In this document: piece by piece, positions 1 to 5,114 of the stretch
How positions within the stretch are numbered: position 1 is the first letter of the stretch
Layout of the letters: each line of letters starts with the position of its first letter
Source of the DNA: a virus
Lineage: Duplodnaviria; Heunggongvirae; Uroviricota; Caudoviricetes
Length of the DNA stretch: 5,114 bases
IMG/VR virus record: IMGVR_UViG_2690316227_000010
Span: 1 to 5,114 of that record
Reading direction: 5' to 3' (one strand)
The notes under the pieces: model-generated
What the model was told of the DNA's origin: nothing
Seen by the model: the letters and a program-made list of their open reading frames with translations, nothing else
Databases searched by the model: none
Program-made: the position numbers and the translations under genes

Positions 1-1332
1 CTGGCCCTGTCCAGACTGAAAGGGGAAGAAAAAGAGCGTGCCCGGCTGGGGTATGCGGCGGATGACCTTGGTTTTGTGGGGGATTCGTATCAGGAGGCGA
101 GACAGCGTTATATCAGTAATGCTCTGGAAGCCTGGCGTAATAACGAGGCGAACAAACCTAAATCCCGGGGTGGAAAATCAGAGACGGAAAAAGCGGAAGA
201 CAGTTTTTCCCGGCTACTGAAGCAGCAGAAAGAGCAACTGGCACTGGCGGGTCAGAATACAGAGCTGGCGAAGCTGAAGTACCAGACTGCGCAGGGCGAA
301 CTGAAAACCCTGACGGAGATGCAGAAGCAGGAACTGCTGCGTAACGCGGCCCTGATTGACCAGCAAAAAATCCGGGAACAGTTGCGATCCCGGGAAGAGA
401 CCCTGAAGAATGATAATGTGGCTGCGCGTGCATCAAATGAAGCCGAACTGCTGGGGTACGGGCAGGGAGAACGAGCCAGGGAACGCATGCGGGAGTTGCA
501 GCAGATCCGCGACAGCTTCCGCCAGAAGGATGCGGACCTTCAGTCTCAGTATCAGACCGGGGATATCAGTGAGGATTTTTACAGACAGGCACGGGCACAG
601 AACGCGCAGTATCTGAGCGAACGCCTTAAGGACCAGGCAGCCTTTTATGCCGAATCGGATGCGCAGCGTGCGGACTGGCAGAAAGGCTTGCAGGAGGGGC
701 TCAGTAACTGGTTGGATAATGCGTCCGATTACGCCTCACAGGCAGCACAGCTTGCGACGGAGGGTATCTCAGGGATGGTGAATAACATCACGGAGATGCT
801 GAACGGAAATAAAGTGGAATGGCGCAGCTGGGCCTCATCAGTGCTGCAGGAAATATCAAAAGTTCTTATGAATGCCGCGATTGTCAACGGAATTAAGACG
901 GCGGCAAACGGTATGTCCGGTGCGGGAGGATTTCTCGGCAGCATTGGTGACTGGCTGGGCGGGGCGGTGGCCAATGCAAAAGGCGGCGTGTATACCTCGG
1001 CAAACCTGAGTGCGTACAGCAACAGTATTGTGGATACGCCCACGTACTTTGCCTTTGCAAAAGGGGCCGGGCTGATGGGGGAGGCCGGACCTGAAGCCAT
1101 TATGCCCCTGACGCGGGCGGCGGATGGCTCGCTGGGTGTGCGCGCGGTGGGTAGTATGTACGGCAGTGCGGGCCTGGTGTATTCCCCGGTCTACCATATC
1201 GCCATTCAGAATGACGGGACTAATGGCCAGATAGGGCCGGAGGCGGCAGGCAGTCTTGTGCAGCTGATTGACCAGCGGGTGCAGGCGGTGATGCTGTCCA
1301 TGCGACGTGACGGAGGAATGCTGAGTGGCTGA
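1..1332 (+). CDS. H: Tail tape measure protein, C-terminal portion (5' partial; ORF enters from upstream of window)
   Basis: Frame 1 is open from base 1 to TGA at 1330-1332, so the GTG at 76 in the ORF track is not the true start. Translation is Q/E/R/K/A/L-rich and coiled-coil-like (e.g. LKQQKEQLALAGQNTELAKLKYQTAQGELKTL), followed by a Gly/Ala-rich hydrophobic C-terminal segment, typical of tape measure proteins. It sits immediately upstream of M-L-K-I-J homologues. Confidence 0.9.
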   Translation: MALSRLKGEEKERARLGYAADDLGFVGDSYQEARQRYISNALEAWRNNEANKPKSRGGKSETEKAEDSFSRLLKQQKEQLALAGQNTELAKLKYQTAQGELKTLTEMQKQELLRNAALIDQQKIREQLRSREETLKNDNVAARASNEAELLGYGQGERARERMRELQQIRDSFRQKDADLQSQYQTGDISEDFYRQARAQNAQYLSERLKDQAAFYAESDAQRADWQKGLQEGLSNWLDNASDYASQAAQLATEGISGMVNNITEMLNGNKVEWRSWASSVLQEISKVLMNAAIVNGIKTAANGMSGAGGFLGSIGDWLGGAVANAKGGVYTSANLSAYSNSIVDTPTYFAFAKGAGLMGEAGPEAIMPLTRAADGSLGVRAVGSMYGSAGLVYSPVYHIAIQNDGTNGQIGPEAAGSLVQLIDQRVQAVMLSMRRDGGMLSG

Positions 1333-1666
1333 GATAAAAACGCTGCATCTGGTCCCGCGTGAAGGGATGCAGGTGAGTGAGAAGCCGTCGGTGGTGAGGG
1401 TGCGGTTTGGTGACGGTTATGAACAGCGCCGCCCCACAGGGCTGAATCCTCAACTGAAGACGTTTCAGGCGGTGTTCCGGGTGACGGATGAGTCAACCCG
1501 GCGCTGGCTGGAAGAGTTTTTATCGTGGCATGGTGGTTACCGTGCCTTTTTGTGGCGACCGCCGAAACATAACCGGACGGTGAGGGTTGTGTGCCGTGAG
1601 TGGAGTGTCACGGATAATGCCCGGTACAGTGATTTCAGTTGCACGATAGAGCAGGTGGTGAACTGA
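1325..1666 (+). CDS. M: Minor tail protein M (tail tip assembly)
   Basis: 113-aa ORF, size typical of lambda gpM-family proteins, with the internal motif VRFGDGYEQR and a C-terminal EQVVN. GTG start at 1325 is preceded by GGAGG (1312-1316, 8-nt spacing) and overlaps the H stop. Alternative in-frame ATG at 1367 lacks proper SD spacing. Confidence 0.85.
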   Translation: MAEIKTLHLVPREGMQVSEKPSVVRVRFGDGYEQRRPTGLNPQLKTFQAVFRVTDESTRRWLEEFLSWHGGYRAFLWRPPKHNRTVRVVCREWSVTDNARYSDFSCTIEQVVN

Positions 1667-2364
1667 TGCAGGATATTCACGAAGAAAGTCTGAACGAGTC
1701 GGTTAAATCAGAGCAGTCACCGCGGGTGGTGCTCTGGGAAATTGACCTGACGGTGCAGGGCGGTGAGCGGTATTTTTTCTGTAATGAGCTGAATGAAAAA
1801 GGGGAGCCGGTCACCTGGCAGGGGCGGCAATATCAGGCATACCCGATTGACGGCAGCGGTTTTGAGATGAACGGGAAGGGCAGCAGTGCCAGACCGTCGC
1901 TGACGGTGTCCAATCTGTTTGGTCTGGTCACCGGGATGGCGGAGGACCTGCAGAGCCTGGTGGGGGCCACGGTGGTCCGCCGCCGGGTGTATGCCCGTTT
2001 TCTGGATGCGGTGAATTTTGTGGCGGGCAATCCGGAAGCGGACCCGGAGCAGGAGCTGAGCGACCGCTGGGTGGTGGAGCAGATGTCAGAGCTGACGGCC
2101 ATGACAGCCTCGTTTGTGCTGGCAACACCGACGGAGACGGACGGAGCGCTGTTTCCCGGTCGTATCATGCTGGCGAACACCTGTATGTGGACCTACCGCT
2201 CTGATGAGTGTGGTTACACGGGCGGGGCTGTGGCGGATGAGTTCGATAAACCCACCACGGATATCCGTAAGGACAGATGCAGCAAGTGCATGCGCGGGTG
2301 TGAGATGCGCGGCATGGTGGCTAATTTTGGCGGTTTCCTTTCCATCAATAAACTTTCGCAGTAA
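1666..2364 (+). CDS. L: Minor tail protein L (tail tip, Fe-S cluster-binding family)
   Basis: 232-aa ORF from ATG 1666 (MQDIHEESLNE...), which overlaps the M stop as TGATG. AGGTGG SD at 1653-1658. C-terminal cysteine cluster (C..DEC..DRCSKCMRGC) characteristic of gpL-family proteins. Ends FLSINKLSQ, TAA at 2362-2364. The ORF-track start at 1639 lies inside M and is rejected. Confidence 0.9.
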   Translation: MQDIHEESLNESVKSEQSPRVVLWEIDLTVQGGERYFFCNELNEKGEPVTWQGRQYQAYPIDGSGFEMNGKGSSARPSLTVSNLFGLVTGMAEDLQSLVGATVVRRRVYARFLDAVNFVAGNPEADPEQELSDRWVVEQMSELTAMTASFVLATPTETDGALFPGRIMLANTCMWTYRSDECGYTGGAVADEFDKPTTDIRKDRCSKCMRGCEMRGMVANFGGFLSINKLSQ

Positions 2365-2374
2365 ATCCTGTTTT

Positions 2375-3118
2375 ATGACACAGACTGAATCAGCGATTCT
2401 GGCGCATGCCCGGCGGTGTGCGCCTGCGGAGTCGTGCGGCTTCGTGGTGAGAACGCCGGAGGGGGAGCGGTATATCCCTTGTGTGAATATCTCTGCAGAG
2501 CCGGAGGCGTATTTTCGTATTGCACCGGAAGACTGGCTGCGGGCAGAGATGCAGGGGGAGATTGTGGCACTGGTCCACAGTCATCCCGGTGGTCTGCCCT
2601 GGCTGAGCGAGGCCGACCGGCGGCTGCAGATAAAAAGTGCACTGTCCTGGTGGCTGGTCTGCCGGGGGGACATTCATAAATTCCGCTGTGTGCCGCACCT
2701 GACGGGACGGCGCTTTGCGCACGGGGTGACGGACTGTTACACGCTGTTCCGGGATGCCTACCATCTGGCGGGAATTGATATGCCGGATTTTGAGCGTGAG
2801 GATGACTGGTGGCGCAACGGCCAGAACCTGTACCTGGACAATATGGCGGTCACCGGCTTTTACCGGGTGCCCCTGTCCTCTGCACAGGCGGGCGATATTC
2901 TGCTGTGCTGCTTTGGCGCATCGGTGGCCAATCATGCCGCCATATACTGCGGCAACGGTGAACTGCTTCACCATCTGCCTGAACAACTGAGTAAACGGGA
3001 GAGGTATTCCGAAAAATGGCAACGACGAACGCATTCAGCCTGGCGTCACCGCCACTGGCACGCATCTGCCTTCACGGGGATTTGCAACGATTTGGCCGCC
3101 GCCTCAGCCTGTACGTGA
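2375..3118 (+). CDS. K: Tail assembly protein K (N-terminal JAB/MPN metalloprotease-like domain plus C-terminal NlpC/P60-like domain)
   Basis: 247 aa from ATG 2375, 10 nt after the L stop. Contains the JAMM motif HSHPGGLPWLSEAD (H-x-H-x7-S-x2-D) and, downstream, NlpC/P60-like catalytic residues (Cys in VTDCYTLF, His in ANHAAIY, HH in LLHHLP). No strong SD, so the start is probably translationally coupled to L. The open frame upstream to 2114 overlaps L and is not coding. Confidence 0.85.
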   Translation: MTQTESAILAHARRCAPAESCGFVVRTPEGERYIPCVNISAEPEAYFRIAPEDWLRAEMQGEIVALVHSHPGGLPWLSEADRRLQIKSALSWWLVCRGDIHKFRCVPHLTGRRFAHGVTDCYTLFRDAYHLAGIDMPDFEREDDWWRNGQNLYLDNMAVTGFYRVPLSSAQAGDILLCCFGASVANHAAIYCGNGELLHHLPEQLSKRERYSEKWQRRTHSAWRHRHWHASAFTGICNDLAAASACT

Positions 3119-3696
3119 ACACGGCAGCGGAAGCCATCCGTGCCCTGTCGATGCAGATGCCGGGCTTTCGCCGTCAGATGAACGAAGGCTGGTACCAGAT
3201 ACGTATTCGCGGTGAGGACACGGCACCGGAGGCGGTGTACGCCCGTCTTCACGAACCTCTGGGTGAGGGGGCGGTCATCCATATTGTGCCGCGACTGGTC
3301 GGAGCCGGAAAGGGCGGACTGCAGATTGTGCTGGGGGCGGCGGCCATCGTGGGGTCGTTCTTCACGGCCGGGGCATCAATGGCGTTATGGGGTTCAGCCC
3401 TGGCAGCCGGTGGTTTTTCTGCCACCACGATGCTGTTTTCACTGGGGGCTAGCATGATACTGGGCGGTGTGGCCCAGATGCTGGCACCGAAGGCAAAAAC
3501 ACCGGATTACCGCGCAACGGATAACGGTAAACAGAACACGTATTTTTCCTCACTGGACAATATGATTGCCCAGGGTAACCCGATGCCGGTGCCTTATGGT
3601 GAAATGCTGGTTGGTTCACGACGGATATCCCAGGACATCAGTACCCGTGATGAAGGCGGTGGCGGAAAGGTTGTGGTTATCGGGCGGCAGGGGTAA
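3016..3696 (+). CDS. I: Tail assembly protein I (N-terminal ubiquitin-like beta-grasp domain, Gly-rich hydrophobic C-terminal region)
   Basis: 226 aa from ATG 3016 with GGGAGAGG upstream (2997-3004). Starts 103 nt inside the 3' end of K in a different frame, the overlap architecture typical of lambda-like K/I pairs. N-terminus MATTNAFSLASPPLARICLHGDLQRFGRR..., then GxxxG-rich hydrophobic stretch (GAAAIVGSFFTAGASMALWGSALAAGG...). TAA at 3694-3696. Confidence 0.88.
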   Translation: MATTNAFSLASPPLARICLHGDLQRFGRRLSLYVNTAAEAIRALSMQMPGFRRQMNEGWYQIRIRGEDTAPEAVYARLHEPLGEGAVIHIVPRLVGAGKGGLQIVLGAAAIVGSFFTAGASMALWGSALAAGGFSATTMLFSLGASMILGGVAQMLAPKAKTPDYRATDNGKQNTYFSSLDNMIAQGNPMPVPYGEMLVGSRRISQDISTRDEGGGGKVVVIGRQG

Positions 3697-3728
3697 AAAG
3701 AATAAAACAATCCCGCAGAGTTGCGGGG
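3697..3728 (-). terminator. Candidate Rho-independent terminator oriented for the minus strand
   Basis: Hairpin CCCGCA (3712-3717) / TGCGGG (3722-3727), loop GAGT. On the minus strand it is followed by TTGTTTTATTCTTTTT (complement of 3695-3710). On the + strand the hairpin is followed by GACAGACAAAG (not U-rich), so it is minus-oriented. Abuts the I stop codon. Confidence 0.4.
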
Positions 3729-3739
3729 ACAGACAAAGA

Positions 3740-3749
3740 TTAACGTTAA
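3740..3749. repeat. Perfect 10-bp palindrome TTAACGTTAA; ATTAACG recurs at 3786-3792
   Basis: TTAACGTTAA equals its own reverse complement. Sits immediately before the AAGGAG at 3748-3753. Possible protein-binding site, or chance in AT-rich DNA. Confidence 0.15.
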
Positions 3750-3759
3750 GGAGTTATTT

Positions 3760-3864
3760 TTGTTTCTGGTGCTCGGGCAAAAAAACATTAACGCAGAGAA
3801 ATTATTAGCACCACAGTCAGTTTGTGAAAATGTGAAGATATTCAGAAGTTTTATTCCGTCATGA
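3760..3864 (+). CDS. Hypothetical small ORF (34 codons, TTG start) in the I-J spacer; speculative
   Basis: AAGGAG (3748-3753) lies 6 nt before TTG 3760. Frame is open to TGA 3862-3864 and would encode (M)FLVLGQKNINAEKLLAPQSVCENVKIFRSFIPS. Ends 2 nt before the + strand terminator hairpin. No homology assessable; TTG start and short length make this weak. Confidence 0.15.
   Translation: MFLVLGQKNINAEKLLAPQSVCENVKIFRSFIPS
3831..3846. promoter_or_regulatory. CRP-like motif TGTGA-N6-TCAGA (9/10 match to the TGTGA-N6-TCACA core)
   Basis: tgtgaagatattcaga at 3831-3846, flanked by AAAA on the left. An additional TGTGAA copy lies at 3823-3828. A single match in AT-rich DNA, so it could be chance. 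Confidence 0.2.
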
Positions 3865-3866
3865 TG

Positions 3867-3897
3867 CAGGCATCCTCCGGGATGCCTGTTGTTTTTG
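3867..3897 (+). terminator. Candidate Rho-independent terminator (+ strand): 9-bp stem, 4-nt loop, U-rich tail
   Basis: CAGGCATCC (3867-3875) pairs perfectly with GGATGCCTG (3880-3888), loop TCCG, followed by TTGTTTTTGTG (3889-3899). On the minus strand the downstream sequence is not U-rich, so the orientation is +. Lies 33 nt upstream of the J ATG. Confidence 0.55.
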
Positions 3898-3918
3898 TGC
3901 GTAACAGTTATCACAGTA

Positions 3919-3927
3919 AAGGGTGAG
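3919..3927 (+). promoter_or_regulatory. Shine-Dalgarno region for J
   Basis: AAGGGTGAG located 3-7 nt upstream of ATG 3931. Confidence 0.6.
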
Positions 3928-3930
3928 ACA

Positions 3931-5114
3931 ATGGGCAAAGGTGGCGGCAAGGCGCACACACCGCGCGAGGCGAAGGACAATCTCAAATCCACGCAGATGA
4001 TGAGTGTGATTGATGCGATTGGTGAGGGACCGATAGAAGGCCCGGTGAAGGGGCTGCAGAGTATCCTGGTGAACAAAACCCCGCTGACGGACACGGACGG
4101 CAATCCTGTGATACACGGTGTGACCGCGGTCTGGCGCGCCGGGGAGCAGGAGCAGACACCACCGGAAGGCTTTGAGTCCTCCGGAGCTGAAACCGGACTG
4201 GGCGTGGAAGTGACGAAGGCAAAGCCGGTAACGCGCACCATTACGTCCGCGAACATTGACCGCCTGCGGGTTACCTTCGGGGTGCAGTCACTGGTGGAGA
4301 CCACCTCAAAGGGTGACCGTAACCCGACGTCTGTCCGCCTGCTGATTCAGCTTGAGCGTGGTGGTAAATGGATGACGGAAAAGGATGTCACCATTAACGG
4401 CAAGACCACCTCACAGTACCTGGCGTCGGTGATTCTGGATAATCTGCCTCCCCGTCCTTTTAACATCCGGATGGTCCGGGAGACAGCGGACAGCACCACG
4501 GACCAGTTGCAGAATAAGACGCTCTGGTCGTCATACACCGAAATCATCGATGTGAAACAGTGCTACCCGAACACGGCGATTGTGGGGCTGCAGGTGGATG
4601 CGGAGCAGTTTGGCGGTCAGCAGATGACGGTGAACTACCATATCCGCGGTCGCATCATCCAGGTACCGTCAAACTATGACCCGGAAAAACGCACTTACAG
4701 CGGCATCTGGGACGGCAGCCTGAAACCGGCATACAGCAACAACCCTGCCTGGTGCCTGTGGGACATGCTGACTCACCCGCGCTACGGCATGGGAAAACGT
4801 CTGGGGGCGGCGGATGTGGACAAGTGGGCGCTGTATGCCATCGGGCAGTACTGCGACCAGATGGTGCCGGATGGCTTCGGGGGCACCGAGCCGCGGATGA
4901 CCTTCAATGCGTACCTGGCACAACAGCGTAAGGCGTGGGATGTTCTCAGTGATTTCTGCTCGGCGATGCGCTGTATGCCGGTATGGAACGGTCAGACGCT
5001 GACGTTCGTTCAGGACCGCCCGTCGGATGTGGTGTGGCCGTACACCAACAGCGATGTGGTGGTGGATGATAACGGCGTGGGGTTTCGCTACAGCTTCAGC
5101 GCCCTGAAGGACCG
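3931..5114 (+). CDS. J: Host specificity protein J / central tail fibre (tail tip), N-terminal ~394 aa; 3' partial, continues past window end
   Basis: Frame 1 is open from ATG 3931 to the window end with no stop, so it is missing from the ORF track. SD AAGGGTGAG at 3919-3927. N-terminus MGKGGGKAHTPREAKDNLKSTQMMSVIDAIGEGPIEGPV... and later ...TLWSSYTEIIDVKQCYPNTAIVGLQVD...AWCLWDMLTHPRYGMGKRLG... are characteristic of lambda-J-family proteins. Position directly after I agrees. Confidence 0.9.
   Translation, partial: MGKGGGKAHTPREAKDNLKSTQMMSVIDAIGEGPIEGPVKGLQSILVNKTPLTDTDGNPVIHGVTAVWRAGEQEQTPPEGFESSGAETGLGVEVTKAKPVTRTITSANIDRLRVTFGVQSLVETTSKGDRNPTSVRLLIQLERGGKWMTEKDVTINGKTTSQYLASVILDNLPPRPFNIRMVRETADSTTDQLQNKTLWSSYTEIIDVKQCYPNTAIVGLQVDAEQFGGQQMTVNYHIRGRIIQVPSNYDPEKRTYSGIWDGSLKPAYSNNPAWCLWDMLTHPRYGMGKRLGAADVDKWALYAIGQYCDQMVPDGFGGTEPRMTFNAYLAQQRKAWDVLSDFCSAMRCMPVWNGQTLTFVQDRPSDVVWPYTNSDVVVDDNGVGFRYSFSALKD

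Follow-up and report, generated by a model that had tools for sequence, protein, structure and literature searches.

A probable divergent member of the PasB/EcOnc22-24 small RNA family lying between the tail genes I and J in a lambdoid prophage

Introduction

PasB (pathogenicity-associated sRNA B, E2348CN_0006) was described in EPEC E2348/69 (Pearl Mizrahi et al., 2021; PMC8550237), where it was mapped to the minus strand of NC_011601.1 (1466343..1466261; 83 nt) within prophage PP6, in the gap between E2348C_1436 and E2348C_1437 (Table S6 of that paper). It was confirmed by Northern blotting with the probe AATCCCGCAGTGATCGCGGAGCT and was shown to depend on Hfq for its stability, with log2 fold changes in an hfq deletion of -6.8 in the activating and -2.4 in the non-activating condition, while its 5′ end was set from read coverage together with an approximate Northern size (PMC8550237). 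RIL-seq gave 37 interactions for PasB, with 30 of the partners in CDS or 5′UTR regions, and all Pas sRNAs were found to interact with core-genome and accessory-genome targets alike; the function of PasB was left for future work (PMC8550237). A seed was proposed in the AUCUU area of the RNA (Zhu, Shabalina and Storz, 2026; preprint 10.64898/2026.05.13.724894).

From EHEC Sakai, three homologous Hfq-CRAC peaks were reported as EcOnc22 (prophage Sp15), EcOnc23 (Sp14) and EcOnc24 (Sp11) (Tree et al., 2014; PMC4104026, Table S2). EcOnc22 gave a Northern band of ~85 nt and was destabilised in an hfq deletion (PMC4104026). Neither source paper contains a cross-reference between PasB and EcOnc22-24 (PMC8550237; PMC4104026), and the PasB row of Table S6 (PMC8550237) has no note of an EHEC homolog, unlike the rows of PasA and PasD.

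Here we analysed a stretch of 5,114 nucleotides from a tailed-phage record (Caudoviricetes; IMG/VR IMGVR_UViG_2690316227_000010, positions 1 to 5,114), referred to as the window. An initial annotation made from the letters of the sequence had proposed a minus-strand sRNA gene of the Hfq type in the gap between genes I and J, and this proposal is supported by homology to PasB and EcOnc22-24 and by the experiments on them. We estimate at roughly 80% the probability that the I-J gap of the window carries a member of this family, as a prophage 'moron' that would form a free-standing sRNA gene directed against the tail operon. The RNA is then not new, and the window would hold a divergent representative of an sRNA family already described.

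Materials and Methods

Spacers between I and J were gathered in two ways, by similarity of the spacer and by similarity of the I protein, the latter being blind to spacer content. The resulting sample of 41 distinct spacers is narrow, all of them belonging to close relatives (I protein ~95–98% identical). A contig scan with the I protein gave 13 loci.

The coordinates of Tree et al. (2014) refer to an older version of the Sakai genome, and the current Rfam matches to AsxR and STnc100 lie ~137–142 nt higher. This offset was calibrated on AsxR and STnc100, at 1.27 Mb only; we extended it by inference to 2.17–2.90 Mb because the three EcOnc peaks hold a constant position relative to J.

Results

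The window was shown to cover the tail-tip portion of a lambdoid (Stx-phage-like) late operon; the annotation of its close match in E. coli O121 RM8352 runs from tape measure through a tail protein, L and a C40 peptidase (K) to the tail assembly protein (I) and finally J. The gap between I and J is 234 bp long and non-coding, and is the sole sizeable non-coding gap of the window (Table 1). In lambda the corresponding gap is just 60 bp and does not contain the PasB module; therefore, most of the gap in the window is DNA extra to lambda. Of 5,426 complete E. coli genomes, 1,842 contain homologs of the I-J spacer, and a single genome has as many as 11 of them. Among distant I homologs (35–63% identity; Enterobacter, Rahnella, Pantoea, and E. 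ruysiae), the PasB hairpin and the CRP-like box were absent by pattern search.

The I-J gap acts as a slot with exchangeable contents: in some prophages a sodC gene takes the place of the PasB promoter. The plus-strand hairpin upstream of J is outside the sRNA and is part of a right-hand module that is separately exchangeable. In the sodC-carrying prophage group, homology to the window ends at 3792/3793, adjoining the predicted start of the sRNA.

Table 1. Coordinates of features in and around the I-J gap (positions of the window; RNA letters are given for transcribed elements).
Feature	Position	Strand	Remark
Tail assembly gene I	3115..3696	+	Stop codon 3694-3696
U-rich tail AUUGUUUUAUUCUUU	3697..3711	-	G in tract corresponds to plus-strand C at 3708
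Predicted PasB-family sRNA transcript	3700..3794	-	5′ end ~3794 by promoter geometry; 3′ end in U tract, ~3700-3705
Intrinsic terminator hairpin CCCGCA-ACUC-UGCGGG	3712..3727	-	6 bp, tetraloop, -9.4 kcal/mol
AUCUU within UUAAUCUU	3736..3740	-	Adjoins 5′ side of terminator; most conserved unpaired block in the conservation profile
CUCCUU, anti-Shine-Dalgarno-like	3748..3753	-	Complement of plus-strand AAGGAG that mimics a ribosome-binding site
A-rich AGAAACAAAAAUAAC	3753..3767	-	Five consecutive A-R-N triplets; candidate Hfq distal-face motif
U7 run near RNA 5′ end (A7 on plus strand)	3779..3785	-	Published PasB 5′ end maps to 3779
-10 hexamer AATAAT	3801..3806	-	Promoter scan
-35 hexamer TTCACA	3823..3828	-	16-bp spacer, 10/12 match
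CRP-like box AAATGTGA-AGATAT-TCAGAAGT	3828..3849	.	Core TGTGA-AGATAT-TCAGA 3831-3846, centre 3838.5
Neighbouring terminator-like hairpin GCAGGCATCC-TCCG-GGATGCCTGT, then TGTTTTTGTG	3866..3899	+	Upstream of J
Tail tip gene J, start	3931..5114	+	ATG 3931

In E2348/69, E2348C_1436 is the tail assembly protein I (ending at 1466255) and E2348C_1437 is J (starting at 1466496). PasB and the window element have in common their location, between I and J of a lambdoid prophage, and their antisense orientation. They also share the core of the terminator stem, the position of the -10, the CRP-like box, and two conserved blocks, AUCUU and CUCCUU. The window spacer showed 90% identity to the PP6 spacer, and the window RNA was identical to PasB at 77 of 108 alignment columns (71%), with three indels, one of them in the proposed seed area. 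The sequence of the published Northern probe is exactly that of the plus-strand hairpin in the E2348/69 spacer and in several aligned homologs. Compared with PasB, the window copy lacks 9 nt of the terminator loop, which shifts the stem, and a further 4 nt immediately 5′ of the terminator, within the seed area proposed by Zhu et al.; it has gained 6 nt near the 5′ end, reads AATAAT for TATAAT, and carries a G in its U tail. With the loss of 4 nt in the seed area and the changes in tail and hairpin, this copy may be weaker or altered in its target range.

In the current Sakai record, the coordinates of EcOnc22, EcOnc23 and EcOnc24 were found within I-J gaps, opposite in strand to both flanking genes, and after correction by about +137 to +142 the three Hfq peaks fall on the body and terminator of a PasB-like RNA. 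These loci resemble the window in their antisense position in the I-J gap and in the order of modules. In the Sakai type the variable 5′ region is shorter than in the window, the -35 is weak (TTCCGG/TTTCCG), and the stem is complete (7 bp) and followed by U7; its RNA showed 65% identity to that of the window. PasB (EPEC, 2021) and EcOnc22-24 (EHEC, 2014) appear to be the same family. In the homologs, the transcript has been shown to be 83–85 nt long, to be lost when Hfq is absent, to bind Hfq directly and to have many RNA partners; for the window copy we infer the start site, the seed and expression.

An Rfam scan of positions 3400–4200 at a permissive E-value gave no family at the gathering threshold. 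The best score, 20.2 bits for STnc100 compared to a threshold of 47, came from the plus-strand hairpin at 3866..3899, and the STnc100 and Hrs1 matches were both set aside as below-threshold look-alikes of terminator hairpins. Since the PasB and EcOnc22 loci also lacked a gathering-level match, Rfam 15 has no PasB model. Identity with the AgvB/AsxR anti-sRNAs was rejected, as these are located downstream of PR′ and not in the tail region, and their Rfam models do not match the window. HnrS, a multicopy prophage sRNA, was rejected as well, as it corresponds to EcOnc10-12 at other sites.

Scans of the whole window gave two overlapping promoter-like matches (2.3 ± 1.5 expected from shuffled sequence) and seven terminator-like matches (4.1 ± 2.1 expected). 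Neither count is above chance, and the motifs by themselves would not carry the claim of an sRNA. The case rests on the ordered, co-oriented arrangement within the gap, on conservation in the 41 spacers and on the experiments on homologs.

The element has its own predicted sigma-70 promoter, TTCACA-16-AATAAT, at a conserved position. The AATAAT hexamer had already been picked out by the initial annotation as the -10 element, and the aligned -10 was conserved in 40 of the 41 spacers (TATAAT 20, AATAAT 12, TATCAT 7, GATAAT 1, GATAAA 1). It had been paired there with a TTTTCA about 18 bp upstream; that hexamer is present and gives a 9/12 match, but the scan prefers TTCACA, which at a 16-bp spacing gives 10/12. 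TTCACA with the 16-bp spacer was found in 28 of 41 unique spacers, the -35 being weaker in the rest.

Promoter geometry places the start at the G at 3794 and predicts an RNA of ~92–98 nt depending on the termination point, whereas transfer of the published PasB 5′ end to the window gives 3779 and an RNA of only ~77–83 nt. For E2348/69 the promoter-based length is 98 nt, at odds with the reported 83 nt, and for the Sakai type it is 91 nt compared to ~85 nt on the Northern blot. No acceptable -10 was found ahead of 3779. We tentatively favour 3794 as the predicted 5′ end, possibly followed by 5′ processing. The predicted window RNA folds with an MFE of -19.9 kcal/mol (z -2.4). Its 3′ end (~3700–3705) is beyond the stop codon of I, and the RNA thus abuts I without overlapping it, contrary to the earlier description of it as antisense to the 3′ end of that gene.

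The family trait of a 3′ terminator abutting the I stop codon (CCCGCAG...CUGCGGG and U7) is present in the window in a reduced form. The annotated minus-strand hairpin at 3712–3727 with a U-rich tail was recovered; its 6 bp and tetraloop are the shortest form seen in the family, common to the window and the O121-type allele, and its stability of -9.4 kcal/mol compares with -10.5 to -14 for most of the 12 forms and -7.6 for one other. By its sequence it looks like a deletion derivative, between GCGG repeats, of the usual CCCGCAG-loop-CUGCGGG. The hairpin is followed by A-UUGUUUUAUUCUUUUU (3711..3695; tail also given as AUUGUUUUAUUCUUUUU). What had been called a long U-tail is indeed U-rich, but the tract is interrupted (UUGUUUU), leaving four uninterrupted U. 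This U-to-G change is private to the window, whose tail AUUGUUUUAU is unique among the 41 unique spacers, while 34 of them have the usual tail AUUUUUUUAU; compared with the O121 RM8352 allele, the tails read AUUGUUUU (window) and AUUUUUUU (O121). With its shortened terminator and altered tail, the window copy may terminate transcription and bind Hfq more weakly than its relatives.

These features raise the possibility that the window copy is a decaying PasB relic, in which the promoter may fire while weak termination and Hfq binding keep any stable sRNA from accumulating. The unique tail and the shortest hairpin form would fit such decay, as would the result that the 66-mer at 3680–3745 has no identical counterpart in the 5,426 complete E. 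coli genomes (best match 98.5%). However, the short hairpin is widespread in combination with an intact U7, being found in ~350–420 complete genomes at 95–99% identity, and the hairpin alone is therefore tolerated; in addition, the terminator scan still scores the site with its four remaining U, and the promoter and CRP-like box are intact. We consider a relic improbable, and a divergent family member remains the preferred reading.

Among 24 aligned variants, the outer stem of the terminator is nearly invariant (first pairs unchanged in 24/24; innermost G-C pair gone in the short form), while the loop is hypervariable, with 12 different loops differing by indels, a pattern that fits selection on the hairpin. 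The expectation that the element would be conserved in related prophages was borne out, the terminator stem, the -10 and the CRP-like box being kept across homologous spacers. The covariation that had been suggested as a further check did not appear (compensatory change in 0 of 7 stem pairs in the 24 variants), because the stem barely varies.

Within the RNA body, three unpaired blocks are best conserved: GCGUUA at the predicted 5′ end, the U run, and the AUCUU that directly precedes the terminator. Between the U run and CUCCUU the sequence is hypervariable and contains indels whose lengths are not multiples of three. The CUCCUU block is largely conserved in the spacer alignments and is a candidate seed. 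The A-rich stretch mentioned in the initial annotation corresponds to the complement of 3753–3767; A-R-N runs of 3–5 triplets were present in each of the 23 variants listed, with five in the window. Distal-face binding to Hfq would call for such a repeat together with a 3′ tail of at least about 6 U; the window has the repeat, and its U tract is interrupted. In folding models the A-rich stretch may also pair with the U run, as the 3′ arm of a weak hairpin at the 5′ end. As a regular feature, a 5′ hairpin between the U run and the A run was rejected, since it formed in 26 of 30 isolated 5′ parts yet in just 13 of 30 full-length MFE folds, at -1 to -6 kcal/mol.

The plus strand of the same region could in principle encode a small protein, either from TTG 3760 to TGA 3864 (34 aa) or as a 47-aa ORF (3721–3864), the minus-strand motifs being incidental. 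AAGGAG is located 6 nt ahead of the in-frame TTG, the ORF is listed among the open reading frames of the window, and one phage record (PhiR12_1) annotates a 32-aa hypothetical CDS in the spacer. That CDS, however, is in another frame and begins at an ATG absent in the window, and the window frame leaves just 9–14 codons in about half of the 41 unique spacers. Moreover, the TATAAT -10 of E2348/69 creates an in-frame TAA, and the upstream indels are not multiples of three. As the reading frame is not conserved across the 41 spacers, coding by the small plus-strand ORF was rejected as extremely improbable, and AAGGAG is better read as the complement of the CUCCUU block of the sRNA.

A different role for the RNA would be a mainly cis-acting one, in which pairing with the I-J part of the late mRNA, or convergent transcription, modulates J or the processing of the late transcript during lytic growth. 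The antisense position within the late operon is conserved in every spacer examined, the RNA is fully complementary to the I-J intercistronic part, and a cis role is compatible with action in trans too. On the other hand, the partners of PasB in RIL-seq, most of them in CDS or 5′UTR regions, and the reach of all Pas sRNAs into core and accessory genomes (PMC8550237) argue for targets elsewhere; PasB is expressed in lysogens, where read counts of I and J are very low, and the end of the RNA is ~120 nt from the ribosome-binding site of J. A mainly cis-acting RNA is thus very improbable compared to a trans-acting member of the PasB family.

The CRP-like motif noted at 3831–3846 stands above chance. 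No other site in the window fits TGTGA-N6-TCACA with one mismatch or fewer (0.18 expected by chance), or the 22-bp CRP consensus with three or fewer (0.01 expected; 1 of 200 shuffles). Its core is kept in 40 of 41 spacers, including variants with a diverged -35 and spacer, and the distance from its centre to the upstream edge of the -10 is 32.5 bp in 38 of 41 spacers and in the window. By sequence, it is the most conserved promoter-side element of the spacer. The class II spacing that had been proposed did not hold: relative to the predicted start at 3794 the centre is at -44.5, 3 bp beyond the -41.5 at which class II boxes are centred while overlapping or replacing the -35, and a separate -35 hexamer is present here. 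Relative to the coverage-based 5′ end at 3779, if that is a true start, the centre is at -59.5, the canonical class I position being -61.5 (or -71.5, -82.5). A plus-strand promoter using the box was rejected, as no acceptable -10 was found at a class I or II distance and the plus-strand terminator intervenes.

Activation of the promoter by cAMP-CRP, by which this prophage sRNA would respond to carbon status, is a secondary hypothesis that builds on the PasB-family reading, and one that we hold tentatively, somewhat short of an even chance. It would agree with the quality of the match, with the retention of the box at a fixed distance from the -10 even where -35 and spacer have diverged, and with the abundance of PasB, which is highest in stationary-phase LB: it exceeds in overnight static LB its level in exponential DMEM, whereas the CRP-repressed Spot 42 shows the reverse. 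However, growth phase differs between these conditions as well, the centre is at neither canonical position (-41.5 or -61.5) whichever 5′ end is used, and the near-consensus TTCACA-16-TATAAT of E2348/69 (11/12 match to sigma-70) should need no activator. CRP, cAMP or a promoter are not mentioned in either PasB paper (PMC8550237; preprint 10.64898/2026.05.13.724894), and no link between PasB and CRP was found in the papers searched.

Discussion

The features of the locus fit the following course of events. In a lysogen, with the late operon silent, sigma-70 RNA polymerase would start at TTCACA-16-AATAAT (predicted start ~3794), transcribe leftward for ~80–95 nt and stop at the CCCGCA/UGCGGG hairpin and U tract adjoining the I stop codon. 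The RNA would offer Hfq its 3′ U tail and the internal A-R-N run, and the exposed, conserved single-stranded CUCCUU and UUAAUCUU would be available for trans pairing with mRNAs. An input from cAMP-CRP is suggested by the conserved CRP-like box just upstream of the -35.

It is conceivable, though rather unlikely, that PasB, EcOnc22-24 and the window RNA form one broad multi-copy family with expression set by cAMP-CRP through an unusually placed box. If so, lambdoid prophages would couple a riboregulator of host targets to the carbon status of their lysogen, and the current PasB census would understate the size of the family. The conserved CRP-like box offers a direct and cheap test of the signal driving a prophage sRNA.

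Three points were not previously reported: that PasB and EcOnc22-24 appear to be equivalent, that a CRP-like box is conserved, and that the I-J gap is modular and exchangeable. From motifs alone, the initial annotation of the raw sequence recovered a real sRNA gene, experimentally validated in homologs; the understanding of sRNAs in general is unchanged, and the leads are modest and for specialists.

Besides PasB and EcOnc22-24, other Hfq-bound morons are present in the late regions of EHEC lambdoid prophages, namely AgvB/AsxR (EcOnc01/02) and HnrS (EcOnc10-12). Unlike the window RNA, these are found at other sites (HnrS elsewhere among late genes), have other sequences and are 51–66 nt long. 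In the E. coli core genome, CyaR and McaS are CRP-activated, Hfq-dependent sRNAs encoded by free-standing genes, with a CRP box by the promoter and a 3′ hairpin followed by a U tail. With no sequence relationship to them and with its box in a non-canonical position, the window locus shows a similar layout.

Variation in the I-J spacer

Of the 5,426 complete E. coli genomes, 1,842 contained homologs of the spacer between tail genes I and J. The number of such places per genome had a median of 2 and reached 11. The gene for PasB (the Hfq-dependent sRNA of the EPEC E2348/69 I-J gap), its promoter and the CRP-like box were all retained in ExPEC-type spacers, in which the right-hand module was exchanged for a block of approximately 150 nt containing AAAACCCCGGTATC...GATACCGGGGTTTC, a hairpin flanked on both sides by T/A runs. 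These spacers contained a different GC hairpin in place of the plus-strand hairpin of the window (see table). In phage lambda, the 60-bp I-J gap has a counterpart of the window hairpin, in which TTTTGTC comes after CCGCCTGCGGGCGG. One possible role of the plus-strand hairpin of the window is that of an insulator in the lysogen, with read-through when Q antitermination operates.

In a group of sodC-carrying prophages, homology to the window ended at the equivalent of 3792/3793, and in place of the block with the PasB promoter and CRP-like box these prophages had a Cu,Zn superoxide dismutase (sodC-like) gene on the minus strand, accompanied by a hairpin of its own. A PasB-like body and terminator were present on the same strand directly downstream of sodC, and they possibly represent a 3′UTR-type sRNA.

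Several variants contained tandem TCAGACA heptamers in variable copy number (about 1-4) directly before the ribosome-binding site of J, and the J leader of the window (CAGTTATCACAGTAAAGGGTGAGACA) had none.

Features of the I-J spacer and related loci (L-numbers are labels of individual retrieved loci; L112 is phage lambda)
Feature	Locus	Position	Strand	Remark
Terminator-like hairpin and T run	window	3866-3899	+	immediately 5′ of J, within late operon
Analogous hairpin	L112	about 768-790
sodC group	L038	1360-1760
sodC group	L028	327-1313	-
sodC group, further members	L043, L062, L063, L065-L067, L074, L082, L083, L089, L093, L098, L107
TCAGACA heptamers in J leader	L008, L007, L012/L014 and others	just upstream of J start
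ExPEC-type spacers	L009, L010, L020, L055, L072, L077, L095			length 336-343 nt
Sakai loci (NC_002695.2)	L014, L015, L017, L018
Contigs with unexpected taxon labels	L020, L021, L028, L024

Public records and earlier surveys

E. coli-type I genes (92-98% identity) were also found on short contigs with the taxon labels Streptomyces flavalbus, Parendozoicomonas haliclonae and Clostridiales MAG, two of which contained the PasB hairpin, and an Enterobacter-type I gene was found in a Geobacteraceae MAG. These I genes appear to result from contamination or from mis-binning of public assemblies.

Calibration on AsxR and STnc100 at 1.27 Mb showed that the positions given by Tree et al. (2014; PMC4104026) in their Table S2 lie approximately 137-142 nt below those of the current RefSeq record. 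Placing the EcOnc RNAs on the current Sakai record requires a shift of this size. In the census of a 2026 preprint (Zhu, Shabalina and Storz; 10.64898/2026.05.13.724894), PasB was mostly single-copy, with duplicates in 58 of 1,107 chromosomes; divergent members, such as the Sakai counterparts EcOnc22-24 and the window type, were probably left out of that census.
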